Assembly: GCA_965372715.1 (NCBI GenBank)
Contig: CBDVDH010000031.1
Coordinates: 1 to 42,530, forward strand
DNA from: an uncultured bacterium
Lineage (GTDB): Bacteria > B130-G9
Direction of reading: 5' to 3'
Length of the DNA stretch: 42,530 nt
Shown here: positions 6,924 to 35,130 of the stretch, piece by piece
Numbering within the stretch: the first letter of the stretch is position 1
Layout: each line of letters opens with the position of its first letter
Program-made: the position numbers and the translations under genes
The notes under the pieces: generated by a model
The model's database searches: none
What the model saw: the letters and a program-made list of their open reading frames with translations, nothing else
Told to the model about the DNA's origin: nothing

Positions 6924-7249
6924 GCACAAGCTCAAGCGTTATTCTCTCCCCAATAACCGGACTGGGATGTTCTCGTGGTTCTTATTGCACCCCGTTGCAC
7001 TTGCAATCGGCGGAACAGGTTCATAAACAACCAATTACAGGAATTACCGACGAGCTGAAAAAGATGACAAGACGCAGATCAAGCTGCGTCCTTCAAAGGC
7101 ACTTCCCCTCCCTAACCAGCCTGACCCCACTGATAATCCCTTGATCGCCGCCCCTCATACCAATCTGATCATAGCGGAAGGCGTGGCGGACGTGGTGCGG
7201 GGAGGCGCAGACGCGCGGCCGGTGCCGCGCTCGTCTAGTCAACTCCTAC

Positions 7250-7282
7250 AAAAAAGCAAGGGGCAGAAACGCTCCGCCCCTT
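7250..7282 (-). terminator. rho-independent terminator after the 39-aa peptide gene
   Basis: Minus strand AAGGGGCGGA-GCGTT-TCTGCCCCTT stem-loop followed by GCTTTTTT. Confidence 0.8.
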
Positions 7283-7324
7283 CGTGAAGCCGCGCTCTGA
7301 CGCGGTCGGTATCAACCTATGACG

Positions 7325-7444
7325 TCAGCATTTCACTGAACCGCCGAAGCCCGTGCAAGAGAGACTTGGCCCAAGAGCAGTCACCAGCGCCTCGGCGTCA
7401 AGCGTCAGAACTCTCGGCGACTCGTAAACCTCATTCGTCTTCAT
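7325..7444 (-). CDS. 39-aa RiPP-precursor-like peptide (MKTNEVYESPRVLTLDAEALVTALGPSLSCTGFGGSVKC)
   Basis: ATG 17 nt after the upstream gene's stop, with GGAG 6 nt before it; YxxPxV leader-like motif; Gly/Ser/Cys-rich C-terminus; terminator about 40 nt downstream. Confidence 0.7.
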   Translation of the reverse strand: MKTNEVYESPRVLTLDAEALVTALGPSLSCTGFGGSVKC

Positions 7445-7461
7445 TGTTATCTCCATTGTAT

Positions 7462-9882
7462 TCATTGATTGGCAGTCGGAGACCGAAGGTCGGAGATTCG
7501 CCGAACGGCGAATTCGATCAATTCGAGGCCCATTGGCGACCTTGCAGACACTGGCCCGTGGGCGGTCCATTTGCCCGTCGTCTCGATGTCAACCAGCCAG
7601 TAGTTGTAGGAAACGCCCGGCTCAACGTTCATGTCCGTGAAGCTGTATGAGGCGCCGGACGCTGGACCACCTCTCGCGGCGATCAGGTCGCTCATCTGCT
7701 CATAGTCTTGCGCGCCCGCGATCATCCTGAACAGCACGAACCCGGCGTTGTCAATCTCAGCGCCCGTCTGCCATGTCAGGCAGATGTTTGAGCCTTCAGC
7801 GCGCGCGTCAAACGACACGAGCTCGATTGCCGTGATGCCCCAATACCTATAATGGAAGCCCATATCAACATCGTCTGCGGTCGTCATATCGAGGTACCCA
7901 CCGATGTCGGTGATATACCTCGAATTGGAGCCGCCGCCGTAGGGATTCACACTCATATTTCCCACATCGATACACAGGCTCTTGTCAGAACCATCCTGGT
8001 CCAGGAAATAGTCATCGTAATCAACAACGCTACCACCCAGCGTGCGGAACTCAGGATCCGAGTTGATGTTACCGGCTCCGGAATACCCGCCCTGGACATC
8101 CGAGTAGGTGATCGTAATCGTCGAGCTGTCCTTGAGGCAGACTTCCCCACCACTGTCCCCCCACAGAATACAGTTCGTCATCGATGGAGAGGGGTCATCC
8201 ACGGCGCAATATATGCCACCACCCTGGCTAGCAGAGTTGTGTGCCACTGTGCAGTTAATGAAGCTAGGGGCCGTGCCCGTCGAGGAACAGCAAATGCCGC
8301 CGCCGGTGTTGGCGCTATTCCCGATGATCAGGCAGTTTTCGATCGTTGGCGATGAGTTACACGTCGCGGATATGCCGCCGGCGTCGTCCTGCGTCGAGTT
8401 ATACGCGATAACGCAGTCAGAAATAGTTGGCGAAGACTCCCAGCACTGGATACCTCCGCCGGAATACGTGGGCGTATTGTGAGCGATAACACAGTCGTCG
8501 ATTGTCGGGCAAGCGTTGTCCCAGCACCCAATGCCGCCTCCGCGAATTGCATGGTTGTAGGTTATCTTGCATTTGCTTATGGACGGAGACGAACCATAGC
8601 ACAGGATGCCACCGCCAAGCTGCCAAGGGCTACTCGCCTCGCCCCTGCTGCCGCCGGTGATCGTGAGACGGTTAACGGCCGCGCCATCCACGTGATCGAA
8701 GAGAATCACACGGTTTGTCCCATCCGCATCGACGGTTACCGTCTTTGCGGACGTACCTCTTATTCTCACGTAGTCTTCCATATTGAGTGGGAAAGTCTCA
8801 CCCAATGACGTATCATACGTTCCCGCTGCAACGTGGATCGTCACGCGATAGGCCGCGCTGCCTGAGGCCTGCGTCAGGGCATAAGTGATCGTCTTCCAGG
8901 GATTGGCGCTCGTCCCGTTGCCGGTTGTGTCGCTGCCAGTGTTCGCTGAGACGTAGTAGTCGCAAAGCGCCACATAAACCTCTGCCCAAATCTCACCTGA
9001 TGACGAATCGGGATGTGCCGCAGAACCGCCGAATTTGTAGAATTTGCCAGCAATCACGGTTCCGCCGAAATCGCGCCCTAGGTAGTTGTTGTCCTCGACA
9101 CGCTCCCAGCTGTCCGTGTGAGGATCATACTTAAGTGTAACGGAGTCTTCGCCCTTCTCGCGGTCACCATAGACGTAAATGTGGCTGCCAATCACTCCGG
9201 CGACTGCGCAGTTCATCACATACGGCATGTTCGTCTTTGTGTCCCACGTATTTGTGAAGACGTCATATTCCCACGTGTTGGTGTGTCCTCCATGGTAGCC
9301 GCCTGCAAACACATATATCTTGTCGCCATACACCGCCGCTCCCGGCTGGCCTCTTGGGCTAGGGAGTGAGGCCCTGTCGGACAACCACGTGTTGGTAGCT
9401 ATATCGTAGGCCTGAACCCGATCCGTGTTATGGCCTCCTATCAGGTAAATCACGCCGTGGTGGACCACCGCGCGGGTCCCCCACGGCGGATTCGGAATAT
9501 TTGCTCCGTTTGCCCAGCTGTCCGCATCTGGATCGTAGATCTCTACCTTTGGAGAGGCTGATTCGTCGCTACCACCGAGGACATAGATCTTGTCCTGATA
9601 GGTGACAGCATCTGCTCCTCCGCGGGCTGTGGGCATCGCCGCCATTTCCGTGTAATCATCGGCATCGGGGTCGTATTTCCAAACGACCGTAGAATACGCT
9701 CCCCCACCAGATCCGCCAAATATATACACGTTGCCATGCCAAGCGGCCACGGCAACATTCTTCTGGGCTTCCGGCAAATCCGCTAATACTTCCCAGCCCG
9801 TTGCATAGGCGCCGGCTACCATGGTCACGAGAACCGTGATCGCGGTGGCGAGCGTCAATCTCATTTCTCTGCGAACGTACAT
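7462..9882 (-). CDS. secreted multidomain protein: Kelch propeller + DUF1565 + right-handed beta-helix + C-terminal Ig/FN3-like domain
   Basis: RBS GGAGGAGG before ATG 9882; signal peptide; about six Kelch repeats (IYVLGG..YDP..W); YYVSANTGSD..GNGTSANPWKTITYAL; repeated GGGI-C units; C-terminal AIELVSFDA..WQTGAEIDNAGF. Confidence 0.88.
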   Translation of the reverse strand: MYVRREMRLTLATAITVLVTMVAGAYATGWEVLADLPEAQKNVAVAAWHGNVYIFGGSGGGAYSTVVWKYDPDADDYTEMAAMPTARGGADAVTYQDKIYVLGGSDESASPKVEIYDPDADSWANGANIPNPPWGTRAVVHHGVIYLIGGHNTDRVQAYDIATNTWLSDRASLPSPRGQPGAAVYGDKIYVFAGGYHGGHTNTWEYDVFTNTWDTKTNMPYVMNCAVAGVIGSHIYVYGDREKGEDSVTLKYDPHTDSWERVEDNNYLGRDFGGTVIAGKFYKFGGSAAHPDSSSGEIWAEVYVALCDYYVSANTGSDTTGNGTSANPWKTITYALTQASGSAAYRVTIHVAAGTYDTSLGETFPLNMEDYVRIRGTSAKTVTVDADGTNRVILFDHVDGAAVNRLTITGGSRGEASSPWQLGGGILCYGSSPSISKCKITYNHAIRGGGIGCWDNACPTIDDCVIAHNTPTYSGGGIQCWESSPTISDCVIAYNSTQDDAGGISATCNSSPTIENCLIIGNSANTGGGICCSSTGTAPSFINCTVAHNSASQGGGIYCAVDDPSPSMTNCILWGDSGGEVCLKDSSTITITYSDVQGGYSGAGNINSDPEFRTLGGSVVDYDDYFLDQDGSDKSLCIDVGNMSVNPYGGGSNSRYITDIGGYLDMTTADDVDMGFHYRYWGITAIELVSFDARAEGSNICLTWQTGAEIDNAGFVLFRMIAGAQDYEQMSDLIAARGGPASGASYSFTDMNVEPGVSYNYWLVDIETTGKWTAHGPVSARSPMGLELIEFAVRRISDLRSPTANQ

Positions 9883-10012
9883 TTTTCTCCTCCTCCAAGA
9901 AAAATACTTGTTTCGTCTCTGTGAAATCACAAAAGCACGAACATTCATCCCATCCCAGATTCCATCAGCCGATAGGCATCACCTCCCACGAATATCTCTC
10001 ATCGTTCAATAC

Positions 10013-10099
10013 AAGGGCGATTTGACGTTCCGTCGCGCTCCCGCTTTGTGAATCGCCCCTACAATTCCATCTAGGGCGGGTCAAAGACCACGCCACTAC
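10013..10099. repeat. degenerate GTAG-type REP hairpins
   Basis: Minus strand GTAGGGGCGATTCAC...AAATCGCCCTT with an internal insert, next to GTAGTGGCGTGGTCTTTGACCCGCCC. Confidence 0.6.
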
Positions 10100-10286
10100 A
10101 CGTCACAACTCACGCGCACGATTCTTTCTCCATAGAACGTGCTTACAGGTTATGCAAAGGAAGGGAGATTGCGGGTGGATTCCCCGCTGAGAAAGGAAGA
10201 CAGGACAGAAGGCTGACCTAATGTCCTATTCTCGTTTCCGACTCCCTACTCACATTTTACTCGCATTTTCTCTGTGTCAATATACA

Positions 10287-10872: not shown

Positions 10873-13245
10873 TTGTCCGTGAAGGTCGCGGGTCTTTGTA
10901 GATTACTCTTTGCTGTTGTTCTATCCGCTGTCGTAACAGTGGTCGCGGTCATGTGGGCTCAGCGGCATGGAGTGGCTGAAAAACGCCCGGCCGAGCGAAC
11001 CGGTTACTGGAACATGATCGATTCGCTCGAAAAGGGCCGCGTAGTCTCGACCGCCACCGCGTCCGTCCTATTGCCGTTTGCGGACGTGATGACCAACAAC
11101 GATTCGTATCTTGTGGCCAACAGGTGGGGCATGAAAAAGAAGGTCACGATAGCAAACGAGCAGCGAAGCGCCGTCTTCGCGCCCAGCGCGACATCAATAG
11201 AATGCTGCGTAAACGTTCCAGCGGGCGGGGTCCTCGATTTCGGCTACGGCATCTCGCCGGACGCCTGGCCAAGGGCCGGCGATGGGTGCGAATTCGAGAT
11301 TGTTCTCGAAGACGCCGATGCGAATGAGCGTCTTTTCTCGCACTACATCAATCCCAAGATGCGGAAGGAGGACCGCAAATGGTTCGATGTTCGGCTGGAC
11401 CTTTCGCCCTGGGCCGGCAAGGACGTTACGCTGACTTTCTCAACACGCGGAACCTACCGCGTCAAGCCGCCATTCAAGCGGCAGCCTGACGTGCGATACG
11501 ACTATGCCCTGTGGAGCAACCCATTCATCGCTCGAGACGATGAGTGGCAGACAAATGCCAACGTCATATTGATCAGCATCGACACGCTGCGCGCGGACCA
11601 CGTGTCGTGCTATGGCTACGATAGAGACACCACGCCGAATATCGATGCCCTGGCCGCTGACTCAGTGGTGTTTGAGCAGGCGATCACGCCCGCCCCGTGG
11701 ACGCTGCCCGCGCACGCCTCGCTCTTCACCGGGCTTCTGCCGTCCCAGCACGGCGTCCAGAACTTCTACCAGAACCTGTCGGACGAGGCGCTGACACTTG
11801 CGGAGGTGCTTCGGGCCAGGTCGTTTCTCACACTCGGCGTCGCGAGTTTCGAGTATCTGTTTCCCGATTACGGCCTTGCGCAGGGATTTGACGAGTACTT
11901 CTTTCGTTATCCACTCAGGGCCGAGAAGATCGTCGAAAAAGCGCTCGACATGCTTGACAGACATCGCGGCAAACGGTTCTTCATGTTCCTGCACTTTTTC
12001 GATCCGCACGATCCGTACAATCCGCCGGCGCCCTACAACGGCATGTTCTGCCCCTTCGGAGAGAAGGGGTGTCTCAAGACGCAACATAGAAGCCCCATAA
12101 AGGCCTTTCTCGGCGAGCGCAGGCGCCCAACTCATCGCGATATGGAGGCCGTAATCGCGCTTTATGATGGCGAGATCAGGTTCGTTGACGAGCAGCTCTT
12201 TTTTCTATTTGAGCGGCTCAAGGAACTCGACGTGTGGGACAACACGATGCTAGTCGTTACGTCCGACCACGGTGAGGAGTTCTGGGACCATGGATCGCTT
12301 TCGCACGGCTTTAGGCTCTATGAGGAGCAGATCAGGGCGCCACTCATCGTGAAGCTGCCTCGTTCTCGGAATGCCGGAACCAGGGTCGAACGCCAGGTCG
12401 GGCTGATCGATGTGGCGCAAACGGTCTTCGCCGAGCTAGGGATTGAGGAGGATGCCGACGGCCCCGGCAGGTCGCTCTTCTCTCGGCCGAATCTCGAGCT
12501 GGCAGAGAAGCGATATTACGTATCGGAGACCGTGGCGCACGGCATCAAGAGGCTTTGCCTACGGACCAACATCCTCAAGTACATCACGCCCAACTGCTAC
12601 AACTACAAGGGCTTGAGCTACCGCAGTCCAGAGCTGCTCTACGATCTCCAAAACGATCCGCACGAGACAGAGAATCTCATCGCCCCTGAGGCCGAACTCG
12701 TAGCGTTGCTCAGAAAAGACGCCTACGAGCACCTGTTTGGCCTCTCCTCACCCGGTTGGCAGCTTCTGTTCTCAACGCCAAATCGGCAATCGAAGTTCTC
12801 GGGCACTATTCGGACCGAAGGCCGCCTCAAGAACGTCTATAGCCTGACGTGCCTCGGCGAGACGGTTACTTGCGACGGCCACTCCATTGAGTTCTCAAAA
12901 GTGGTCGAGACTTACGAAAGCTCGCTTTCGTTCCAGGTGGAGCCGCTGGACGCGCCGATCGAGATTGAGATTCAGATCGACGATAGTCTGGAGTGCCTCG
13001 ACCGTATCCTGTTGGCTGCGAGCACGAGGCATCCATCATCCAACCCGTTCACGCTCACTGTCGAGGAGGCGCCAGCCGACGTCGAGAGCCTGATCGCGGC
13101 GTCGGAAGGCAGGGGCAACCGGGAGCGCGTCCTGATCTTCTGCGTCCCGGGCACTGCAGAGCAGCCCTTGAGGCGAAGTGTCGGAACGGTTAAGATCGAC
13201 GCCAGGAGGCATGAGGCGCTGAAAACGCTTGGATACGTGAGGTAG
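10873..13245 (+). CDS. membrane-anchored sulfatase-like (alkaline phosphatase superfamily) hydrolase/transferase
   Basis: NVILISIDTLRADH, APWTLPAHASLFTG, FLHFFDPHDPY, YDGEIRFVD, TSDHGEEF, ELLYDLQNDPHE, C-terminal LKTLGY; N-terminal TM helix and beta-sandwich. Confidence 0.92.
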   Translation: MSVKVAGLCRLLFAVVLSAVVTVVAVMWAQRHGVAEKRPAERTGYWNMIDSLEKGRVVSTATASVLLPFADVMTNNDSYLVANRWGMKKKVTIANEQRSAVFAPSATSIECCVNVPAGGVLDFGYGISPDAWPRAGDGCEFEIVLEDADANERLFSHYINPKMRKEDRKWFDVRLDLSPWAGKDVTLTFSTRGTYRVKPPFKRQPDVRYDYALWSNPFIARDDEWQTNANVILISIDTLRADHVSCYGYDRDTTPNIDALAADSVVFEQAITPAPWTLPAHASLFTGLLPSQHGVQNFYQNLSDEALTLAEVLRARSFLTLGVASFEYLFPDYGLAQGFDEYFFRYPLRAEKIVEKALDMLDRHRGKRFFMFLHFFDPHDPYNPPAPYNGMFCPFGEKGCLKTQHRSPIKAFLGERRRPTHRDMEAVIALYDGEIRFVDEQLFFLFERLKELDVWDNTMLVVTSDHGEEFWDHGSLSHGFRLYEEQIRAPLIVKLPRSRNAGTRVERQVGLIDVAQTVFAELGIEEDADGPGRSLFSRPNLELAEKRYYVSETVAHGIKRLCLRTNILKYITPNCYNYKGLSYRSPELLYDLQNDPHETENLIAPEAELVALLRKDAYEHLFGLSSPGWQLLFSTPNRQSKFSGTIRTEGRLKNVYSLTCLGETVTCDGHSIEFSKVVETYESSLSFQVEPLDAPIEIEIQIDDSLECLDRILLAASTRHPSSNPFTLTVEEAPADVESLIAASEGRGNRERVLIFCVPGTAEQPLRRSVGTVKIDARRHEALKTLGYVR

Positions 13246-25695: not shown

Positions 25696-28600
25696 ATGAA
25701 AATCAAAGAAAGATTAACGCTCGTTCTTCTGATCATGTCGCTGGTTACGCTTGCCGTCACCGGTATCGTTTCGTACACGATCGCCAAGCGAGCTCTCACC
25801 CGGCAGGTCCTCGATCAACTTCAATCCGTTGCATCAATCCAGGAGAACAGGCTCGTTGCCATCATTGAGCGGAACCTTGAAAGGCTAGCCCTGGTCTCGA
25901 GCCGAACTCAACTGCGGCTCAGTCTAGAGAGCTTTGTCAAGAACCCTCAAAAAGAGTCTCAGGACAAGATGAATCGGATACTGCGTGACGCGGTCACCTC
26001 AATCACCTGCATAAGGAAGGCATCTGTACTGAATCTCGAGGGAGAAGTGGTTGCCTGCACGGATTCGGCAGAGATCGGAGCGAGCTGGGCCCACGAAGAA
26101 TGCTTTCTCAGAGGCCGAACAGCCAATCGCGCGGACCAGCTCCATCTGGATAAGGACGGGAATCTGGATCTGCACTTGTCTGGGCCGCTGCGCCTCAATG
26201 GCACGCTGTTGGGCGTTGTATTGATCGATGTTGATGCACAGGACATCGTCTCGTTGGTCAAGGACTACACCGGGCTGGGGAAGACGGGCGAGGCGCTTGT
26301 GGGCAGATTGGGGCCCGAAGGCGACGGGATATTCTTGACCCCGCTGCGTTTCGACAAAGATGCTGCGCTGAGGAGAAGAGTGTCCAAGGAGGCCTTGGAG
26401 TCGCCGGCGATGCAAGCTCTGCTGAAGCACGAGGGGCTATTCCTCGAGACAGTCGATTACCGCGGCGAGCCTGTTTTAGCGGCAACTCGTTACATCGAGG
26501 CAATCGGCTGGGGCCTCGCTGTAAAGATTGACAAGTCCGAGGCGTTTGAACCCATAACCCGGCTGGGCCACCTGCTGATGTTCTTTGTCTTGGTTGCCTC
26601 TGCCCTGGCCGTCTATGTCTCCCTTTATCTTGCCAGGTCCATTGCGAGGCCCATCGCCAAGCTCGCGCACGTGACAGACAGAATCGCTCAAGGCGACCTG
26701 GAGGCAAGGGTGAAACCGACCTCAAAGGACGAGATCGGCAATCTGGGGCAGACCTTCAATCAGATGGCCGAGTCACTTAAGACAGACGTCGCCAGACGGG
26801 AGCGGACCGAGGCCAGGGCTGAGCATCTCAATCTAACGCTTCGTGCCATCCGTAACGTCAACCAGCTCATCACGCAGGAGAAGGACCGCGACAAACTGAT
26901 CAAAGGCGCGTGCGAGAACCTCACCCAGAATCGAGGGTATCATCACGCATGGATCGTGCTCTTGGATGAGTCAAGGCTCCTGTTGACGGCGGCCGAGTCC
27001 GGTTTGGGCGAGCATTTCCCATCCTTTCTGGAGCCAATTCAGCGGGGCGAGCTAATCAAGTGCGGCCAAACTGCGCTTGAGCAATCCGGCATCCTGGCGA
27101 TCGAAGACGTGGGATCCATATGCATTGGCTGTCCTTTGTTTGCTCCACACCGAGGTCAAGGGGTGTTTGTCACACGCCTGGAGTACGAAGGAAAGACATA
27201 CGGTGTCTTGGGCGTCTCCATCCCGTCTCAGCTCGCCTCGGACGAAGAGGAGCGTTCCTTGTTCACAGAGCTTGCGGGTGATCTGGGCTTCGCACTTCAC
27301 AATATTGAGGCTGAAGAAGAACGCCAGTGGGCGGAGGAGGCGCTGCACAAGAGCGAGCACAGATACCGGACGTTGGTTGAGAATCTTCCACAGAAGATAT
27401 TCGTTAAGGACAGGGAGTCCCGGTATGTTTCATGCAACGAGAACTTCGCCAGCGACTTGGGGATCTCAGCTGAGGAGTTCGCTCGGAAGACGGATTACGA
27501 CTTTTTTCCGAAGGAGCTAGCCGACAAATACCGAGCCGACGATAAGCGAATCATGGCCAGCAGGGAGATCGAGGAGCTGGACGAGAAATATCTTCAAGAT
27601 GGTGAGGAACGAACTGTCCATACAGTCAAAACACCCTTGAGAGACGATGAGGGCAATGTTACCGGGATATTGGGCATTTTCTGGGATATCACGGAGCGCA
27701 AACGAGCGGAGGATCGCCTTAGGCTCTCTATTCAGGTGCTGGAAGTGCTCAGCCAGAGGCTTGAGGCACAGGAGATTGCCCGCTCAGTTCTTCTCTTGAT
27801 ACAACGGGCCTGGGGATTCGAAGCCGTCGGTCTGCGCTTTCAAGAGGGTGAGGACTTCCCCTTTTACGAGACACACGGATTCCCCGATGACTTCCTGGAG
27901 GTAGAGAATACTCTATGCGCTGTGGATCAAGCGGGAGAAACGGTTCGAGACTCGGACGGTCATGCGTATCTGGAGTGCATGTGTGGCAACGTGATCAGCG
28001 GACGCACCGACTCATCATTGCCGTTCTTCACAGAGGGTGGCAGCTTCTGGACCAATTGCACGAGCGACCTTCTCGCCTCGACTACCGAGGAAGAGCGCCA
28101 GGCCCACACGCGCAACTACTGCAATACCTGGGGCTATGAATCCATGGCGCTCATACCGCTGAAGTCAGGAGAGCAGCCTCTTGGGCTCCTTCAGCTGAAC
28201 GATACTCGCAAGGATATGTTTAATCTCGAGATGATAAGATTCTTCGAGGGTATCGGGGTGAGCATTGGCCTGGCAATCTCCGGCAAACGGGCGCAGGAGG
28301 AATTGGCTCGGCACCGCGCACACCTAAAGGAATTGGTCAAGGAAAGAACACGAGAGCTTGAGGAGACCCACGAACAGCTCGTCCGGCAGGAGAGATTGGC
28401 CGTCCTCGGTCAGCTCGCTGGCGGCGTGGGGCACGAGCTGCGCAACCCGCTGGGCTCGATCAAGAACGCCGCTTATTTCCTTAACATGGTCCTCGAAGTG
28501 CACGACCCGGAAGTTGGTGAGGCGCTCCAGATACTTCAGAAGGAAGTCTCAAGATCAGAGGGGATCATTAGCAGCCTCCTTGATTTCGCTCGACCGAAGC

Positions 28601-29052
28601 GCCCTGCCCTCCAGATGGTGGAAGTCAATGACCTCATCCAGCAGTCCTTGAGCGGTATATCCATGCCCGATAATGTAAAGATCGAGACTCCTCTGTCCGA
28701 ATCGCTGCCATTGATCGAGGCTGACCCGGATCAGCTCGCCATGATCTTTAGGAATCTCATACTCAACTCGATCCAAGCCATGGAGGGAGGAGGTCAGCTA
28801 ACCGTCGAATCAAAAGCATTGGACGACAACTGGATTGGCATCTCTTTCATCGACAACGGACATGGAATGAGCCAGGAGGACGTGGCGAGGATCTTCGAAC
28901 CCCTCTTCACAACCAAGGCCAAGGGCATTGGATTGGGATTGGCTCTATCCCGGCATGTAGCAGAGGCTCATGGTGGGGCCATAGAAGTACAAAGCGAATT
29001 GGGCAAAGGCAGCATCTTCACCATCAGGCTACCCGTCAAAGGAGGCCCGTGA
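25696..29052 (+). CDS. membrane sensor histidine kinase (Cache-HAMP-GAF-PAS-GAF-HisKA-HATPase)
   Basis: Two TMs flanking a Cache-like domain (VDYRGEPV), HAMP (DEIGNLGQTFNQM), PAS/PAC (WDITERK), H-box HELRNPL, N/G1/F/G2 boxes. Confidence 0.95.
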   Translation: MKIKERLTLVLLIMSLVTLAVTGIVSYTIAKRALTRQVLDQLQSVASIQENRLVAIIERNLERLALVSSRTQLRLSLESFVKNPQKESQDKMNRILRDAVTSITCIRKASVLNLEGEVVACTDSAEIGASWAHEECFLRGRTANRADQLHLDKDGNLDLHLSGPLRLNGTLLGVVLIDVDAQDIVSLVKDYTGLGKTGEALVGRLGPEGDGIFLTPLRFDKDAALRRRVSKEALESPAMQALLKHEGLFLETVDYRGEPVLAATRYIEAIGWGLAVKIDKSEAFEPITRLGHLLMFFVLVASALAVYVSLYLARSIARPIAKLAHVTDRIAQGDLEARVKPTSKDEIGNLGQTFNQMAESLKTDVARRERTEARAEHLNLTLRAIRNVNQLITQEKDRDKLIKGACENLTQNRGYHHAWIVLLDESRLLLTAAESGLGEHFPSFLEPIQRGELIKCGQTALEQSGILAIEDVGSICIGCPLFAPHRGQGVFVTRLEYEGKTYGVLGVSIPSQLASDEEERSLFTELAGDLGFALHNIEAEEERQWAEEALHKSEHRYRTLVENLPQKIFVKDRESRYVSCNENFASDLGISAEEFARKTDYDFFPKELADKYRADDKRIMASREIEELDEKYLQDGEERTVHTVKTPLRDDEGNVTGILGIFWDITERKRAEDRLRLSIQVLEVLSQRLEAQEIARSVLLLIQRAWGFEAVGLRFQEGEDFPFYETHGFPDDFLEVENTLCAVDQAGETVRDSDGHAYLECMCGNVISGRTDSSLPFFTEGGSFWTNCTSDLLASTTEEERQAHTRNYCNTWGYESMALIPLKSGEQPLGLLQLNDTRKDMFNLEMIRFFEGIGVSIGLAISGKRAQEELARHRAHLKELVKERTRELEETHEQLVRQERLAVLGQLAGGVGHELRNPLGSIKNAAYFLNMVLEVHDPEVGEALQILQKEVSRSEGIISSLLDFARPKRPALQMVEVNDLIQQSLSGISMPDNVKIETPLSESLPLIEADPDQLAMIFRNLILNSIQAMEGGGQLTVESKALDDNWIGISFIDNGHGMSQEDVARIFEPLFTTKAKGIGLGLALSRHVAEAHGGAIEVQSELGKGSIFTIRLPVKGGP

Positions 29053-29059
29053 AGACAGC

Positions 29060-29866
29060 ATGAAAGACCAGACAAACATCCTGATTGTTGACGACGACAC
29101 CAGCTTCCGTAGGAGTATGTCACTCATCTTGGCGCGCGAGGGGTACTCAGTCCAAACCGCCAAGGATGGGCCGGAGGCCCTCGCTAAGGCTACTGAGACC
29201 GCGTTCAGGACGATCTTCATGGACATTAAAATGCCGGTCATGAACGGTGTTGAGGCATACAAAAAAATCAAGAACATCAGACCCGAGGCCGAGATTGTCA
29301 TGATGACCGCTTATAGTGTCGAGGAGTTGATTCAGGAAGCGATTCAGGAGGGCGCGTTTGCGGTGATCTACAAGCCTGTTGACATCGAGAAGGTCATCGC
29401 GCTCATCGGGGGAGTGACGGCAAGGAGCGGGCGAGTGACGGCAATGGGCGGGGGAGTGACGGCAAGGGGCCAGAGGGTGTCGATCCTGCTCGTGGATGAC
29501 GATCCCGTGTTTTGCGACGGCCTGAAGGACATGCTGGCCATTGATGATTACGACGTGGATATCGCGCTGACCGGGGAGGAGGCTGTTTCCGCTTCTCGAA
29601 GAAGGCCGTACGACGTAGTATGCATAGATTGCAGACTCCCGAATATGAATGGTCTGGAAACCTATATTGCCATCAAGGAGATCCGCCCGCACACGACAGC
29701 TATCATGATGACTGGATATCGAGAGGAGATGGCTGAGCTGGTGGAACATGCTATAGCCAGCTGCGCCTACTCATGCCTCTATAAGCCCTTTGAGACAAGA
29801 GAGCTCCTGAAGCTGATCGACGAGATCGGCAGTAGGACTAATGCGGCAAAACGACCTCAGGAATGA
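29060..29866 (+). CDS. response regulator with two receiver domains
   Basis: ILIVDDD..MDIKMP..MMTAY..YKP and ILLVDDD..IDCRLP..MMTGY..YKP. Confidence 0.93.
   Translation: MKDQTNILIVDDDTSFRRSMSLILAREGYSVQTAKDGPEALAKATETAFRTIFMDIKMPVMNGVEAYKKIKNIRPEAEIVMMTAYSVEELIQEAIQEGAFAVIYKPVDIEKVIALIGGVTARSGRVTAMGGGVTARGQRVSILLVDDDPVFCDGLKDMLAIDDYDVDIALTGEEAVSASRRRPYDVVCIDCRLPNMNGLETYIAIKEIRPHTTAIMMTGYREEMAELVEHAIASCAYSCLYKPFETRELLKLIDEIGSRTNAAKRPQE
29411..29473 (+). repeat. 3 x 21-nt in-frame tandem repeat in the REC-REC linker
   Basis: GGAGTGACGGCAAGGAGCGGG / CGAGTGACGGCAATGGGCGGG / GGAGTGACGGCAAGGGGCCAG. Confidence 0.9.
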
Positions 29867-29870
29867 GCCA

Positions 29871-31562
29871 ATGGGCGAGAGAGCAAACATTCTCATAGTT
29901 GACGATGACGTGAGTGCCGGCAGAAGCCTGGAGCTCATATTATCCAAGGCCGGGTATGGGATAGAGAGAGTCACCTCTGGGAAAGAGGCCCTCGAGAAGG
30001 CTCAGGTAGGGTACTACAACCTCGCGTTACTGGACGTCAAACTGCCGGACATGGGTGGTGTGCGCGTGCTCACGGCGCTCAAGCGAATCCATCCCGACAT
30101 GACGGTCATAATGATAACCGGGTACGCCTCATTGGAGTCGTCAATATCCTCGCTGAACAAGGGGGCATCAGCATACATAACGAAGCCATTGGACTTAGAC
30201 AATGTGCTGGCTGAGGTCTCCCGGGCCCTGGAAAAGCAGCGCCTAATAATGGAGAACAGGAGGCTCTACGAGGAGGTTAGGCAAGCCCTAGCAGAGAGTA
30301 AGAAGACAGAAAAAGCGCTGCGGGAGAATGAGGAACGTTTTCGCTCTTTGGTCGAGACTTCCGCCGACTTCGTGTGGGAGACAGATGAAAACGATGTCTA
30401 TACCTACGCCAGTCCAAAGATACGCGACATATTGGGTTACGAGCCTGAAGAGGTGCTGGGCAAGACGCCCTTCGACCTGAAGGCCCCAGAGGAGGCCACT
30501 CGTGTTGCTGAGATTTCTCGTTCCATAGTCGCCTCGCAAAGACCTTTCTCGCTTCTCGAGAACAAGCACCTTCACAAAGATGGGCATCTAGTCATTCTCG
30601 AGTCCAGCGGCGTCCCATTCTTCGACAGCGACGGGACATTTCGCGGCTATCGTGGCATTGACCGGGACATCACGGAGCGCAAGGTCCTTCAGAGCCAGCT
30701 GGCGCAGGCGCAGAGGCTGGAGGCGATTGGGCAGTTGGCGGCGGGCATTGCGCACGAGATCAACACACCGACCCAGTATGTGGGTGACAATGTCAGCTTC
30801 CTTAAAGACGTGTCCCAAGACATCATGAAGCTGCAAGGCGAATACGGCAGGTTGCTCGACGCAGCCAGGGACGGCACAATCACGCCAGAGCTCATATCTG
30901 AGATCAGCGCCGTTGCCAAGGAAGTGGACGTGGGCTTTCTGAGCCGGGAGATGCCGTCGGCGGCAGAGCAGGCTCTGGAGGGAGTGGAACGCATCAGCAA
31001 CATCGTCCGTGCGATGCGGCAATTCGCGCATCCTGGCGCCGAGGAGAAAGTGGCGACAGACGTCAACAGAGCAATTGAGAATACAGTCATGGTCTCTCGC
31101 AACGAGTGGAAGTACGTGGCGGACATGGAGACCGATCTGGACCCGGACCTGCCTTTTGTTCAGCTCTTGCCCGGTGAGTTCAACCAGGTCATCTTGAACA
31201 TGATTGTCAACGCGGCACATTCAATTGCTAATGTGGTCGGCGACGGATCGGGCGGCAAGGGCAAGATAACCATCAAGACGAGGCGCAACGGCGAACTGGC
31301 TGAGATACGCGTCAGCGACACCGGAACGGGCATTCCTGAGAAGCTCAGGGACAGAGTGTTTGACCCATTCTTCACGACCAAGGAGGTCGGCAAGGGAACA
31401 GGCCAGGGACTGGCAATCGCACATGTCGTCATCGTTGACAAACACAATGGGACTATCGCCTTGGAGTCGGAAGAAGGAAAAGGAGCGTCCTTCATCGTCC
31501 GGCTGCCCATCGGCCCCGATGACTGTCTCAAAGACCAAGACAACGAAGGGGTGCGGCACTGA
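29871..31562 (+). CDS. hybrid histidine kinase (REC-PAS-HisKA-HATPase)
   Basis: N-terminal REC (LDVKLPD), PAS (RDITERK), HEINTP, NMIVNA, DTGTG, FFTTK, GTGQGL. Confidence 0.94.
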   Translation: MGERANILIVDDDVSAGRSLELILSKAGYGIERVTSGKEALEKAQVGYYNLALLDVKLPDMGGVRVLTALKRIHPDMTVIMITGYASLESSISSLNKGASAYITKPLDLDNVLAEVSRALEKQRLIMENRRLYEEVRQALAESKKTEKALRENEERFRSLVETSADFVWETDENDVYTYASPKIRDILGYEPEEVLGKTPFDLKAPEEATRVAEISRSIVASQRPFSLLENKHLHKDGHLVILESSGVPFFDSDGTFRGYRGIDRDITERKVLQSQLAQAQRLEAIGQLAAGIAHEINTPTQYVGDNVSFLKDVSQDIMKLQGEYGRLLDAARDGTITPELISEISAVAKEVDVGFLSREMPSAAEQALEGVERISNIVRAMRQFAHPGAEEKVATDVNRAIENTVMVSRNEWKYVADMETDLDPDLPFVQLLPGEFNQVILNMIVNAAHSIANVVGDGSGGKGKITIKTRRNGELAEIRVSDTGTGIPEKLRDRVFDPFFTTKEVGKGTGQGLAIAHVVIVDKHNGTIALESEEGKGASFIVRLPIGPDDCLKDQDNEGVRH

Positions 31563-32707
31563 AGAAACGGATTCTGTTCGTGGACGACGAGCCGAATGTC
31601 CTCAACGGGCTTCGGCGCCTTCTGCATGACCAAAGGGACGTTTGGGACATGAGTTTCGCGACCAGCGCGGACGAGGCGCTGGAGCTGGTGGCAAGGAAGC
31701 TGCCTGACGCGATAGTGACCGACATCAACATGCCGGGCAAGAGTGGCCTGGAGCTTTTGGCGGAATTGAAGGGGGCTGACGCGACACGGGAAATAGAGGT
31801 GGCAATGCTCACGGGGCTCAAAGAACAGGACCTCAAGCGTCGGGCGCTAGAACTAGGGGCGACTGACCTCCTTAACAAGCCCGTGCACAAGGACGACCTC
31901 ATCACTCGCCTCAACAGCATGCTCCGCATGAAGTGCTACCGGGAGACGCTGCACGCGCAAGCCGAGGCGCTCAAGGAACAGCTGATCCGTTCCCAGAAGA
32001 TGGAGGTGCTCGGCGTACTCGCCGCCGGCGTGGCCCACGATGTCAACAATGCCCTGACACTAATAATGGTCCACAGCGAGTTGGCGGCTATGGAACTGGC
32101 CAAGAGCTCGCCGACGGTGAAGAGCATCAAGAACATCGAGTGTGCTTGCGAACACGCAGCTAACATTATCCAACAGGTCTTGCGATTCACATGCGATTCT
32201 GGCGCGCGCCGCGGGCTGTGCGATTTGGGCGAGGTAGTTGATAAGAGCCTGGAGCTCTTGAGTCCGTCTATCCCGGCGGGGATCGAGGTCGATTGGGCAG
32301 GTGCAGGAGCCGAGCACTGGATCGAGGCGGACTCTACGCAGATGTATCAGGTTCTAATTAACCTCTGCCTTAACGCTTGCCAGGCCATGGGGGACGAGGG
32401 TGAGCTCAAGATAGAGCTTTGCCAGACTGAAATTCGTGCCGAATCGCTGCCGTCAGACGTGAATGTCAGCCCTGGGGAATACGTGAAGTTCTTGGTGTCC
32501 GACACCGGCGGCGGCATGGACGAGGGTGTCCTTGAGCGCGCGTTTGATCCATTGGTCACGACAAAAACACAAGGCTCGGGCCTCGGACTTTCTGTCGTTA
32601 AGTGGATTGTGAAAGACCACGGCGGCTTTGTAACGGTTGAAACCTCAGCCGGCAAGGGCGCCACATTCTCGGTCTATCTGCCCTGCGCCGCGGGCAGGTC
32701 GGCTTGA
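31559..32707 (+). CDS. hybrid histidine kinase (REC-HisKA-HATPase), probable CTG start
   Basis: LKKRILFVDDE REC start lies upstream of the called GTG 31580; HDVNN, NLCLNA, DTGGG, GSGLGL. Confidence 0.88.
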   Translation: MKKRILFVDDEPNVLNGLRRLLHDQRDVWDMSFATSADEALELVARKLPDAIVTDINMPGKSGLELLAELKGADATREIEVAMLTGLKEQDLKRRALELGATDLLNKPVHKDDLITRLNSMLRMKCYRETLHAQAEALKEQLIRSQKMEVLGVLAAGVAHDVNNALTLIMVHSELAAMELAKSSPTVKSIKNIECACEHAANIIQQVLRFTCDSGARRGLCDLGEVVDKSLELLSPSIPAGIEVDWAGAGAEHWIEADSTQMYQVLINLCLNACQAMGDEGELKIELCQTEIRAESLPSDVNVSPGEYVKFLVSDTGGGMDEGVLERAFDPLVTTKTQGSGLGLSVVKWIVKDHGGFVTVETSAGKGATFSVYLPCAAGRSA

Positions 32708-32711
32708 GGTT

Positions 32712-32734
32712 GTGGGGCGGCTTTCTAGCCTGCC
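32712..32734 (+). repeat. single REP-like hairpin inside the signalling operon
   Basis: GTGGGGCGGCTTTCTAGCCTGCC resembles the arm at 42276-42299. Confidence 0.55.
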
Positions 32735-32758
32735 GAAGTGGGATGAGGGGATAACAAG

Positions 32759-33964
32759 ATGAAGAAGATACTCTTCGTGGATGACCAGCCTTCTGTGCTC
32801 CAGGGGCTTCGGCGGATGCTTCATGGCATGCGCGGCGACTGGGATACGAGCTTTGCCGAGAGCGGCCAGGAGGCCTTGGACCTTCTTGATAAGGACAAGT
32901 TTGATGTCATCGTGAGCGACATGCGGATGCCAGGGATGGACGGCGCACAACTCTTGGCCGAGGTTCGGGAGCGATATCCATATATTGTGCGGATAGTCTT
33001 ATCCGGTTACTCGGATCAGGAAACCGTACTACGCTCGGTCGCGGCGGCCCACCAATACCTCTCAAAGCCATGTGATGTAGCAACGCTTAAGTCCACCATT
33101 TCGCGTGCCTGCTCACTTAGAGCGCTTCTGAGCAATGAGAGCATCCAACGATGTATCTCGACGCTGAAATCGCTGCCGAGCCTTCCATCGCTATACGTTA
33201 GACTCATGGATGAGCTGAGATCGCCTTCCCCGTCGATTGCGAAAGTTGGGGAAGTGATTTCCAGCGATGTGGGTATGACCGCCAAGATACTTCAACTCGT
33301 CAATTCCGCGTTTTTCGGTATCAGCCAACACGTTTCGAGCCCCACTCAGGCCGTAAATCTGCTGGGGTTCGAGACGATCAAGTCGCTGGTTCTGTCGGCA
33401 CAGGTGTTTTCACAATTCGAGGCGCAGCGACTGCCGGCGCATCTGGCAAGCCACCTCTGGGACCACAGTCTGGCGACCGGGGCCTACGCCCGGGCCATCG
33501 CCCGACTCGAGGACTCCGACGTGCGGACATCGGACCACGCGTTCGTGGCCGGGCTGCTTCACGATGTTGGCAAGCTCGTGCTGGCCGTCAACCTCTTCGA
33601 CCGATACAGCAAGGCGCTCGATTTATCAGAGCGCGAGAACCTGCCTTTGGTCACCGCGGAGCTGAAAACGCTGGGAGTAACCCACGCAGAGGTCGGTGCG
33701 TATCTCTTGGGCCTTTGGGGACTTCCGGACCCAATCGTCGAGGCGGTTGCCTTTCATCATTACCCGGCTGAGTGTCCAACAGAGTGCTTCATCCCGCTGA
33801 CGGCGGTGCATGTGGCCGACATTATCCAGCACGAGGTGCACCCAGACGCGACCGAGGTTGTATCCCACGCTGATCTTGACCATCTTGGCAGACTGGGTCT
33901 TGGAAAACGTTTTGACGCATGGCGGGACGCCTGCGAGAGTGTAAACAACAAGGGAGATGAATAA
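32759..33964 (+). CDS. response regulator with an HDOD domain
   Basis: REC (SDMRMP); LPSLP, AKILQLVNSAFFG, LWDHS, AGLLHDVGKL, THAEVGAYLLGLWGLP, FHH. Confidence 0.95.
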   Translation: MKKILFVDDQPSVLQGLRRMLHGMRGDWDTSFAESGQEALDLLDKDKFDVIVSDMRMPGMDGAQLLAEVRERYPYIVRIVLSGYSDQETVLRSVAAAHQYLSKPCDVATLKSTISRACSLRALLSNESIQRCISTLKSLPSLPSLYVRLMDELRSPSPSIAKVGEVISSDVGMTAKILQLVNSAFFGISQHVSSPTQAVNLLGFETIKSLVLSAQVFSQFEAQRLPAHLASHLWDHSLATGAYARAIARLEDSDVRTSDHAFVAGLLHDVGKLVLAVNLFDRYSKALDLSERENLPLVTAELKTLGVTHAEVGAYLLGLWGLPDPIVEAVAFHHYPAECPTECFIPLTAVHVADIIQHEVHPDATEVVSHADLDHLGRLGLGKRFDAWRDACESVNNKGDE

Positions 33965-35130
33965 TGCCTGAGAGGATACTCTTCGTTGACGATGATCCCA
34001 GTATTCTGGCTGGCTTCAGACGGCAGCTGCACAAACAGTTCGACGTCTCTACGGCTGAGAGCGGCCAGGCTGGCCTCGACCTGATCGTTGACAGCGCGCC
34101 GTTCGTGGTCATTGTTGCTGACATGAATATGCCAGGCATCGACGGCATCCAGTTTTTGAGGCAGGTCAAGAAGATTGCGCCTGACACGGTGCGGATAATG
34201 CTGACGGGCCAATCCGACATGCAGGTTGCCATCGAAGCGGTCAACGAGGGCAGTATCTTTCGTTTCTTGACGAAGCCCTGCCCGGCCGACGTCCTTGTCA
34301 AGTCGCTTGCGGCCGGGATCGAGCAGTATCGGCTCATTACCGCCGAGAAGGAGCTCCTAGAGAAGACCTTGAGCGGTAGTGTCAAGGTGTTGAGCGACGT
34401 GCTGGCACTGACCAGAACCAAGTCGTTCGGCCACGCTCAAAGGGTCAGGCGCCTCGTGAAGGAGCTCATGTCCCGCTTACGCATCGGCAGCGCCTGGGAA
34501 ATAGACGTTGCCGCAATGCTCTCGCAGATCGGCTGCGTCACGGTACCAGACGAGGTGCTGGTCAAGTTCTACAAAGGTGCCGAGGTCACCCAGGATGAGC
34601 GGCAGATGTTCCATGCACACCCCGCGATTGGTGCAGAGCTCATCCAAAGCATTCCGCGGCTCGAGAACGTCGCAAAGATCATCGCTTATCAGGAGAAGGG
34701 GTTCGACGGTTCCGGTGTCCCTCGGGATGACATAAGCGGGGAGGACATCCCTCTCGGGGCGAGGCTGCTAAAGATCACGCTGGATTTCGACAAACACACA
34801 ATGTCAGGCAGTAGCCTGCCCGATGCGCTCCAGCAGCTAACGAGAAGCAGCGCTCTATACGATCCTCGGGCGATGGAGGCCCTCCGCGAGGTCATTGCCG
34901 GAGAGCTCGTGTATGAGATTAAATCGATGAGGGTGGACGAGCTGCCACCCGGCATGATCCTGGGCGCCGACGTGAAGACAAGAGAGGATGTGCTCCTCGT
35001 TCCCAGGGGCCAAGAAGTAACGGCAACGCTGCTCTTGCGACTCAAGAACTTCGCCAAGATCGGTGTGATAGCGAACAGCGTCAGCGTCCTCGCCAGGGCC
35101 GATGGGTCTCCGGACACAGAGCAGGAATAG
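33964..35130 (+). CDS. response regulator with a degenerate HD-GYP-like domain
   Basis: REC (ADMNMP); GHAQRV, AAMLSQIG, HPAIG, YQEKGFDGSGVP, GEDIPLGAR. Confidence 0.9.
   Translation: MPERILFVDDDPSILAGFRRQLHKQFDVSTAESGQAGLDLIVDSAPFVVIVADMNMPGIDGIQFLRQVKKIAPDTVRIMLTGQSDMQVAIEAVNEGSIFRFLTKPCPADVLVKSLAAGIEQYRLITAEKELLEKTLSGSVKVLSDVLALTRTKSFGHAQRVRRLVKELMSRLRIGSAWEIDVAAMLSQIGCVTVPDEVLVKFYKGAEVTQDERQMFHAHPAIGAELIQSIPRLENVAKIIAYQEKGFDGSGVPRDDISGEDIPLGARLLKITLDFDKHTMSGSSLPDALQQLTRSSALYDPRAMEALREVIAGELVYEIKSMRVDELPPGMILGADVKTREDVLLVPRGQEVTATLLLRLKNFAKIGVIANSVSVLARADGSPDTEQE

Follow-up and report, generated by a model that had tools for sequence, protein, structure and literature searches.

What is the product of a gene of only 39 codons that closes the operon of a large secreted protein, with no modifying enzyme encoded nearby? 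The question is raised by positions 7250 to 7461 of contig C31, a stretch of 42,530 nucleotides (hereafter the window) from a 3.56-Mb Candidatus Coatesbacteria genome, which is assembled in 112 contigs and is 95.9% complete. A preliminary description of the window had read the gene as a precursor of a peptide made on ribosomes and modified after translation (RiPP), modified in trans and functionally tied to the secreted protein. We consider it probable that the peptide is the precursor of an undescribed RiPP-type family dependent on a RiPP recognition element (RRE), which would be matured in trans by an operon on contig C15 and would work with the secreted proteins whose genes it follows. The evidence consists of selection at the protein level, a wider peptide family with a leader and a core, and synteny, both with a set of genes for an RRE-radical S-adenosylmethionine (rSAM) enzyme, a kinase, a C25 peptidase and an S24-like peptidase and with genes for proteins that share one C-terminal domain (CTD).

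The peptide gene lies on the minus strand at 7328..7444, with its ATG at 7444-7442 and its stop codon at 7327-7325. A GGAG ribosome-binding site (7451..7454, minus strand) is placed 6 nt before the ATG, and 17 nt separate the ATG from the TGA (7464-7462) of the upstream open reading frame (ORF). Re-reading of the sequence gave a peptide identical to the one first described, and in the mechanical ORF list the gene is visible solely as an over-extended ORF of 81 aa at 7325-7570, as had been remarked. The upstream gene (7462..9948, minus strand) is an 828-aa ORF encoding a secreted protein with a Kelch beta-propeller and a DUF1565/right-handed beta-helix, according to its Pfam and NCBIfam domains. 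Its N-terminus carries a hydrophobic, signal-peptide-like stretch (judged by eye), and the database copy of the protein (P0080) has 806 aa, starting 22 codons later. A terminator-like hairpin of 11 pairs, 6 of them G-C, followed by a T-run (7258..7282, minus strand), closes the two-gene operon. It had been called strong; the hairpin and T-run are present, but a consensus scan of the region yielded 3 such sites versus 2.8 expected in shuffled sequences, so that the hairpin on its own is weak evidence and serves as a supporting detail. The 39-aa peptide matched 0 families in Pfam and NCBIfam, and 0 of the 23 window ORFs scanned is maturase-like, in agreement with the first reading. An extension of the large gene by read-through or frameshift was rejected: the peptide is in a different frame, and every paralogue has its own ATG, with a GGAG-type ribosome-binding site in 6 of 7.

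A six-frame search of the genome recovered 7 copies of the peptide, all starting with ATG. Their alignment has 17 invariant columns, comprising Y7, E8, P10, V12, T14, L24 and nearly all of S27-C39; the YxxP motif (Y7, P10) and both cysteines (C30, C39) are therefore kept throughout the paralogues. Over the 21 pairs, the mean rate of nonsynonymous change (dN) was 0.29 versus 1.66 for synonymous change (dS), with synonymous sites saturated, giving a dN/dS of about 0.17; in the final 15 codons of the stretch compared, the same pairs showed 171 synonymous codon differences and 35 non-synonymous ones. All 7 species genomes of the phylum in the collection contain the peptide, with 2-16 copies each and about 50 in total. 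The C-terminal residue is Cys in 31 of 31 distinct copies, selected by a motif pattern that permits up to 3 residues after the last Cys; the two cysteines are spaced Cys-x8-Cys in 25 of the 31 and x9-x11 in the remaining 6. The paralogues, their ribosome-binding sites, the conservation of the protein over saturated synonymous sites and the copies in 7 of 7 phylum genomes confirm the 39-codon ORF as a genuine gene, one that, judging from selection, is translated. No RNA run was listed as containing positions 7200-10100 of the window, and three DNA runs contain small shares of it (0.07-0.10).

Two of the copies in the phylum deserve mention. For one, in genome G003 (contig C165, 3138-3252, locus L036), the match is split into two overlapping parts that lie in different frames, immediately behind a CTD gene; it must be a pseudogene with a frameshift or else an error of assembly. 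The most divergent copy of the Coatesbacteria genome studied here (contig C6, 9914-10024, locus L012) is of a subtype with close relatives elsewhere (P0009, P0016); its neighbours are an M15 endolysin-like peptidase and several large proteins of no family. A prophage context for this copy was considered and rejected, as 11 proteins compared with PHROGs gave one match of phage function, the endolysin-like M15 peptidase; the remaining matches were to a glycosyltransferase, an aminotransferase and one family of unknown function.

The peptide belongs to a family that extends well beyond the phylum. A profile search of 1.84 billion representatives returned 26 peptide matches, and a second search of 5.8 billion proteins returned 62 clusters of the family, all unnamed or annotated as 'hypothetical protein'. 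Distant members retain the N-terminal part, consisting of YExPxV and an acidic stretch ending in LGP, followed by three residues; the 6-20 C-terminal residues after that vary freely. A conserved leader with a variable core is the usual picture for RiPP precursors, and the family comparison thus bears out the RiPP-like reading first given, whereas within Coatesbacteria the core is conserved too. A YxxP-type leader motif is the element bound by the RREs of lasso peptide systems.

The family also indicates where the leader would end. Among 62 matched members, position -3 of the proposed junction is Ser, Ala or Thr in 62 of 62, position -1 is Ser or Ala in 61 of 62, position -2 is variable and position +1 is Cys in 52; 1 of 63 sequences falls outside the pattern. 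Because these small residues at -3 and -1 are nearly invariant, we place the putative junction after S-L-S, three residues later than in the preliminary description. The small-x-small arrangement resembles the signal peptidase I rule. The proposed leader accordingly comprises residues 1-29 (7358..7444, minus strand), with the motif YESPRV, in which Y, E, P and V are invariant, and LGP plus S-L-S at its end. The proposed core comprises the last 10 residues, 30-39 (7328..7357, minus strand), with Cys at both ends and a conserved aromatic residue and Gly-Gly-Ser between them; C30, T31, F33, G34, G35, S36, V37 and C39 are invariant. It contains no Asp or Glu for a lasso ring and has the Cys-x8-Cys spacing, both as originally stated.

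With no maturase in the window, candidate enzymes were sought in the rest of the genome. The PqqD/RRE model PF05402 matches the genome twice, and both matches fall in one operon on contig C15. Its first two genes encode a stand-alone PqqD protein of 91 aa and a radical SAM/SPASM enzyme of 463 aa with an N-terminal RRE; genes 3-5 encode an HprK-related kinase, an exported C25 peptidase of 1117 aa and an S24-like peptidase. The RRE proteins, SPASM radical SAM enzyme and S24 peptidase for which a search had been suggested thus all occur together. The best NCBIfam matches of the rSAM enzyme are peptide maturases, namely StsB (sactipeptide) and the mycofactocin rSAM enzyme, both far below cut-off, and the C25 peptidase fits the PorU sortase model over about 700 residues with 244 bits versus a cut-off of 420. 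The first four genes occur in the same order in 5 of 5 phylum genomes whose contig spans the stretch, and in the other 2 of 7 the contig stops inside the third gene of such an operon. The S24-like gene was confirmed in G000 (the genome of the window), G002 and G006; 5 of 5 S24-like proteins checked have no hydrophobic 19-residue window, and their Ser motif is that of S24/S26 peptidases. In the C25 protein such a hydrophobic window is present at the N-terminus. The HprK-like kinase is single-copy in the genome, and a word-based search found 10 close relatives of it. No other candidate substrate gene was seen in the operon, and the 1.3-kb gap upstream of it contained no conserved ORF and gave no Rfam match.

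A conserved stretch of about 310 nt, with stops in all frames, lies between the genes for a family 2 glycosyltransferase (GT2) and PqqD (locus L082, 8163-8476; about 58162-58475 of contig C15). It is conserved at 95% in G004, at 73% in G005 and partly in G006, begins with an invariant TGGCAC-N5-TGCTT, which resembles the sigma-54 -24/-12 promoter consensus, and ends in a long conserved hairpin. RNAalifold predicted 77 pairs, 13 of them with compensatory changes (4 sequences only), and there was no Rfam match. Possibly the stretch encodes a small RNA, or it may regulate the maturase operon as a leader. In the sister genome G004 (contig C49, 189-3425, minus strand, locus L095) the PorU-like C25 gene is trailed by a second paralogue, 58% identical to the C15 protein.

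The link between the peptide and this operon comes from other lineages. Of 144 genomes sampled outside the phylum, G052 alone had a peptide match, and scanning of metagenome contigs with distant family members gave at least 12 loci, of which L093 and L094 (14 and 13 residues matched) were weak and were set aside as chance matches. ORFs in the loci were chosen by a simple longest-ORF rule. In metagenome locus L083 a CTD gene is followed by the peptide gene and by genes for an RRE-rSAM-SPASM enzyme, an HprK-like kinase and a C25 peptidase, and in L084 the peptide gene is followed by an RRE-rSAM gene. In locus L103, in G052, the contig begins within the tail of a CTD gene; then come the peptide gene and genes for an RRE-rSAM-SPASM enzyme, an HprK-like kinase, a C25 peptidase, an S24-like peptidase and a VanZ-like protein. 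L085 runs from a CTD gene through the peptide gene to genes for an HprK-like kinase, a C25 peptidase, an S24-like peptidase and an NTP_transf_5 nucleotidyltransferase, the last being of a kind that had been named as worth seeking. Identity to the C15 proteins over nearly the full length is 30-34% for the rSAM enzymes, 23-31% for the kinases and 27-31% for the C25 peptidases, and in every case the best match of an outside enzyme in the Coatesbacteria genome is the C15 gene. Since the enzymes align in this way, the C15 operon is, by sequence comparison, the counterpart of a cluster that elsewhere directly trails the precursor gene. At the level of genes, this upholds the proposal of modification in trans. 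The cores linked to an rSAM gene (this phylum, L083, L084 and L103) contain Cys in 4 of 4 cases. On contig C7 an NTP_transf_5 gene is present, only 22% identical to that of L085.

The second association is with the secreted proteins themselves. The last 120 or so residues of the large window protein recur at the extreme C-terminus of 13 ORFs of the genome, mostly beta-helix proteins and including one C25 peptidase. The shared CTD (7540..7827, minus strand; about 100 aa) is an Fn3/Ig-like beta-sandwich: an AlphaFold2 model from a 45-row alignment, with a mean predicted local distance difference test score (pLDDT) of 82, has six strands at residues 28-123 and a less certain tail, and Foldseek with this model returned generic Fn3/Ig domains only. 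Behind it lies a tail (7465..7539, minus strand) that is variable in alignments and of low to medium model confidence. In the linker preceding the CTD the alignments show a conserved DMG[YF]HY motif (7849..7866, minus strand; pLDDT <50), which may be a processing site.

The preliminary description had tied the peptide to this domain and had suggested asking whether such genes are repeatedly followed by such peptides, and in most loci, distant lineages included, the peptide gene does come after a gene with the domain. With the CTD profile, 5 of the 7 copies in the genome have a same-strand CTD ORF 0-140 nt upstream of them. The same spacing is found in 19 of 25 loci of six relatives (in 2 others the CTD ORF is 424-470 nt away, and for the remaining 4 no such ORF was found up to 1.5 kb away) and in 8 of 10 metagenome loci. 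Of the two metagenome exceptions, L084 has only 94 nt of upstream sequence, and L091, with 287 nt, is a true miss. The sixth own copy immediately precedes the gene of the C25 peptidase that has a CTD at its own C-terminus. In L085-L092 the CTD protein is small (250-270 aa) and secreted, and shows the same pairing with the peptide. G052 has at least 4 further CTD genes, one of which is followed by a divergent Cys-rich peptide with a YExP motif. No degenerate peptide ORF was found in the 450 nt downstream of 8 CTD genes checked, including the 5 without a peptide gene. Unlike the exported CTD proteins, the peptide lacks a signal peptide. A co-fold of the CTD (45 rows) with the peptide (42 rows) scored 0.02 against a mark of 0.32, a result that counts neither way.

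The C-termini of the CTD proteins differ between groups. Nearly all end in Arg in Coatesbacteria, the protein of the window itself ending in Gln; the tails carry Lys/Arg runs in G052 and a conserved Pro-rich motif in the L085-type loci. A short basic tail behind the beta-sandwich may be part of a sorting signal.

From these elements a route can be proposed. The peptide would be co-transcribed and translated with the Kelch/beta-helix gene, as the gene layout suggests. Its leader (1-29, YExPxV to LGP) would be bound by the PqqD protein, by the N-terminal RRE of the rSAM enzyme or by both, in line with the family pattern and the gene linkage. The rSAM enzyme would then cross-link the 10-residue Cys core by analogy with known maturases, most likely through a Cys-derived thioether, because Cys is present in all four cores that are linked to an rSAM gene. 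Lasso precursor peptides are phosphorylated on a Ser by HPr-kinase homologues, and an HPr-kinase homologue and a nucleotidyltransferase act as tailoring enzymes on that Ser (PMC8498205). By analogy, the HprK-like kinase may phosphorylate a conserved Ser, and in the L085 variant the nucleotidyltransferase may extend the Ser phosphate (PMC8498205). The S24-like peptidase would cut off the leader after the small-x-small site (S-L-S), given that it has no hydrophobic segment and has an S24/S26-type Ser motif, and given the nature of the junction itself.

The last step would take place outside the cytoplasm, where the CTD proteins are, because the PorU-like C25 cysteine peptidase has an N-terminal hydrophobic segment; there it would act on the proteins with the Fn3-like CTD. 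In the form that we favour, and hold tentatively, the C25 enzyme would attach the modified peptide to the processed protein, one peptide per protein, and the peptide would then be its tag or anchor. Such conjugation is attractive because the C25 enzyme is PorU-like, the cargo has a C-terminal beta-sandwich, the linker has the DMG[YF]HY motif and a peptide gene lies behind each cargo gene. Stated generally, this would be a sorting system in which a clan CD transpeptidase cleaves the CTD from Sec-exported proteins and joins each protein to an rSAM-modified, leader-less peptide, a scheme drawn by analogy that we think possible but rather unlikely as a whole. With similar reserve, a RiPP tag or anchor of this kind could be a peptide-based counterpart of anionic lipopolysaccharide (A-LPS) attachment in type IX secretion or of glycosylphosphatidylinositol (GPI) anchoring. 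The parts are of known kinds (RRE, rSAM/SPASM enzyme, HprK-like tailoring kinase, clan CD peptidase), and their combination with a paired peptide would be undescribed.

Several observations weigh against a precursor matured by the C15 operon and working with the CTD proteins. The case for maturation is one of comparative genomics throughout, and outside the phylum the link between peptide and enzymes rests on synteny at four loci in three lineages; inside the phylum the peptide genes never adjoin the maturase operon. L085 has no rSAM gene between the peptide and kinase genes, and L091 has neither a CTD gene nor the enzymes nearby. With 14 SPASM matches in a genome of 112 contigs that is 95.9% complete, another maturase is possible, and RRE detection depended on one Pfam model, PF05402, which misses some RRE domains. 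The core is strongly conserved among the paralogues, unlike in most RiPP families. As for the partner proteins, the seventh copy, on contig C6, follows a 927-aa protein without a CTD, and 5 of the 13 CTD genes are flanked by no peptide gene. Finally, the rSAM, kinase and S24-like proteins look cytoplasmic whereas the C25 and CTD proteins are exported, and no exporter for the peptide was found in any operon scanned.

Two of these observations, the five CTD genes without a peptide gene and the lone peptide gene of L091, would suit the alternative that survives best, in which the product is an ordinary diffusible RiPP, a signal or antimicrobial that is released. The C25 and S24-like enzymes would then be merely maturation proteases, and the CTD proteins unrelated neighbours of the peptide or at most its carriers or receptors, tied to it neither covalently nor in fixed stoichiometry. 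Variable cores such as those of the wider family are typical of bioactive RiPPs, and the best family matches of the rSAM enzyme, below cut-off, are the StsB and mycofactocin peptide maturases. Against a released product, both this phylum and at least 3 other lineages preserve the order of CTD gene and peptide gene at 0-140 nt, and 7 near-identical cores in a genome fit a supply in proportion to partners better than diversification. The operons scanned showed neither a transporter nor an immunity gene, and the C25 enzyme resembles PorU along about 700 residues, PorU being known as a sortase family and not as one of leader peptidases. We therefore regard a diffusible RiPP as unlikely, yet as an alternative to be taken seriously.

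The tight one-to-one pairing of genes could also be explained by an unmodified small protein partner, acting as a chaperone, as a strand donor for the Fn3-like CTD or as a secretion adaptor, with the rSAM operon serving another substrate in this phylum. The strongly conserved C-terminal half does resemble a structural motif, and the maturase operon is never adjacent in this phylum; but in L083, L084 and L103 a gene of the peptide family immediately precedes the orthologous RRE-rSAM gene, the leader has the YxxP-type motif, no alternative substrate gene was seen in the C15 operon and, in contrast to the exported CTD proteins, the peptide carries no signal peptide. This makes an unmodified partner improbable. 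That the ORF, short and without a Pfam or NCBIfam match, arose by chance in the 3' untranslated region of the large gene is, from the sequence comparisons, already refuted by the 7 paralogues, the roughly 50 phylum copies, the dN/dS over saturated synonymous sites and the homologues in other lineages.

How would an RRE-dependent precursor with an associated C25 peptidase relate to known systems? Every family-level enzyme match lies below its curated cut-off, and neither the peptide nor the CTD has a Pfam or NCBIfam model. A literature search covering titles and abstract openings, with subscription journals outside its scope, listed no paper in which a C25/PorU-type peptidase belongs to a gene cluster of the radical SAM or RiPP kind, nor any about the peptides of this family.

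Lasso peptide systems share the YxxP-type leader motif, PqqD-like RRE proteins and, in every operon found, an HprK-like kinase, with NTP_transf_5 in L085. They differ in that the operons described here have an rSAM enzyme and a C25 peptidase in place of the lasso cyclase and B2 protease, and the core has no Asp/Glu acceptor at position 7-9. No match to PF13471 (B2 protease) over cut-off was found in the genome, and the cyclase is absent from the operons, a genome-wide search having been made for the former only. A lasso product was rejected on the acidic-residue and PF13471 results. A canonical lasso cluster, with a transglutaminase-like B2, a PqqD B1 and an Asn-synthase-like cyclase, does occur in the relative G002 (contig C54, 2028-4815, locus L101); it is found only there and explains the third PqqD match of that genome.

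Sactipeptide and ranthipeptide systems (StsB, PapB) are alike in that the radical SAM/SPASM enzyme carries a fused RRE and the core is short and contains Cys. In NCBIfam, StsB ranks first among the matches of the C15 enzyme and second among those of the L083 enzyme, but the C15 enzyme scores below the cut-offs, with 138 versus 625 bits for StsB and 97 versus 340 for PapB. Unlike in those systems, the precursor genes here are scattered and paired with secreted-protein genes, and the operon adds a kinase and C25 and S24-like peptidases. Mycofactocin (MftA-F) resembles the present case in its stand-alone PqqD-like chaperone beside an rSAM/SPASM enzyme and in a small peptide conserved at its extreme C-terminus, and a GT2 gene with MftF as its best match adjoins the C15 operon. 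The scores are again low, at 137-158 versus 265 bits for the rSAM enzymes (137 for the C15 enzyme against MftC) and 63 versus 280 for the GT2; the peptide ends in Cys and has no C-terminal Val-Tyr, and no equivalents of MftD or MftE were seen.

The SynChlorMet/HPr-rel-A systems, known from NCBIfam and Pfam definitions, combine a PqqD-like protein, an rSAM/SPASM enzyme and an HprK-related protein as the C15 operon does. Matches to ScmD, ScmE, ScmF and HprK_rel_A were weak and below cut-off (35 versus 100 bits for ScmD, 121 versus 400 for ScmE and 53-67 versus 200 for HprK_rel_A), and a neighbouring Atlas cluster has PF27840 ScmC on 13% of its members. To our knowledge these systems have neither a C25 peptidase nor a CTD-protein partner, and a literature search on them found no text.

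The type IX secretion system (T9SS) is the closest parallel to the final step. There PorU cuts a beta-sandwich domain off the C-terminus of the cargo, which it joins to an anchor. Alike are the large exported C25 (clan CD) peptidase, which fits the PorU model over about 700 residues, and the many cargo-like secreted proteins, including a C25 peptidase, with a common C-terminal beta-sandwich. Unlike a true PorU, the C25 enzyme remains at 244 bits under a cut-off of 420. SprA and PorV were each found in 0 of 7 phylum genomes, the SprA blank being weak as its model was silent in all 14 control genomes. Any PF18962 match to Por_Secre_tail (PF18962/TIGR04183) occurred in 1 of 7 genomes, and 0 of 45 CTDs matched Por_Secre_tail or FlgD_ig at E<=0.1. 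In the Protein Atlas the best score with the CTD was 0.86, and T9SS sorting-domain clusters scored 0.80-0.81; such similarities are no more than leads, and Pfam did not confirm them. A canonical T9SS was rejected on the SprA/PorV, Por_Secre_tail and CTD results, and we know of no association of a T9SS with a ribosomal peptide and an rSAM enzyme.

If the proposed reading is true, it adds a RiPP-type family with an unusual enzyme set (RRE-radical SAM, HprK-like kinase, PorU-like C25 and S24-like peptidases) whose precursor genes are systematically coupled to genes of secreted proteins with one sorting-like domain. Such coupling suggests that ribosomal peptides may serve as partners, possibly covalent, of surface proteins, beyond their role as free natural products, and PorU-like enzymes would have a role outside type IX secretion. 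The analysis supplies testable components for the candidate phylum Coatesbacteria, of which very little is known, and indicates that genes of 39 codons, below ORF thresholds, can define a system.

Among the other genes of the window, a sulfatase-family gene (10873-13245, plus strand) is divergent from the large gene and about 900 nt upstream of it. A few genes downstream of the peptide operon of G052 there are a second rSAM/SPASM gene and one of the phosphodiesterase/sulfatase family (L103, 9298-12235); the presence of a sulfatase-family gene near both may be a coincidence. Further along the window, at 25696-35130 (plus strand), six consecutive signalling genes encode a Cache/HAMP/GAF/PAS histidine kinase, a double receiver, two hybrid kinases, a receiver-HDOD protein and a receiver-HD protein.

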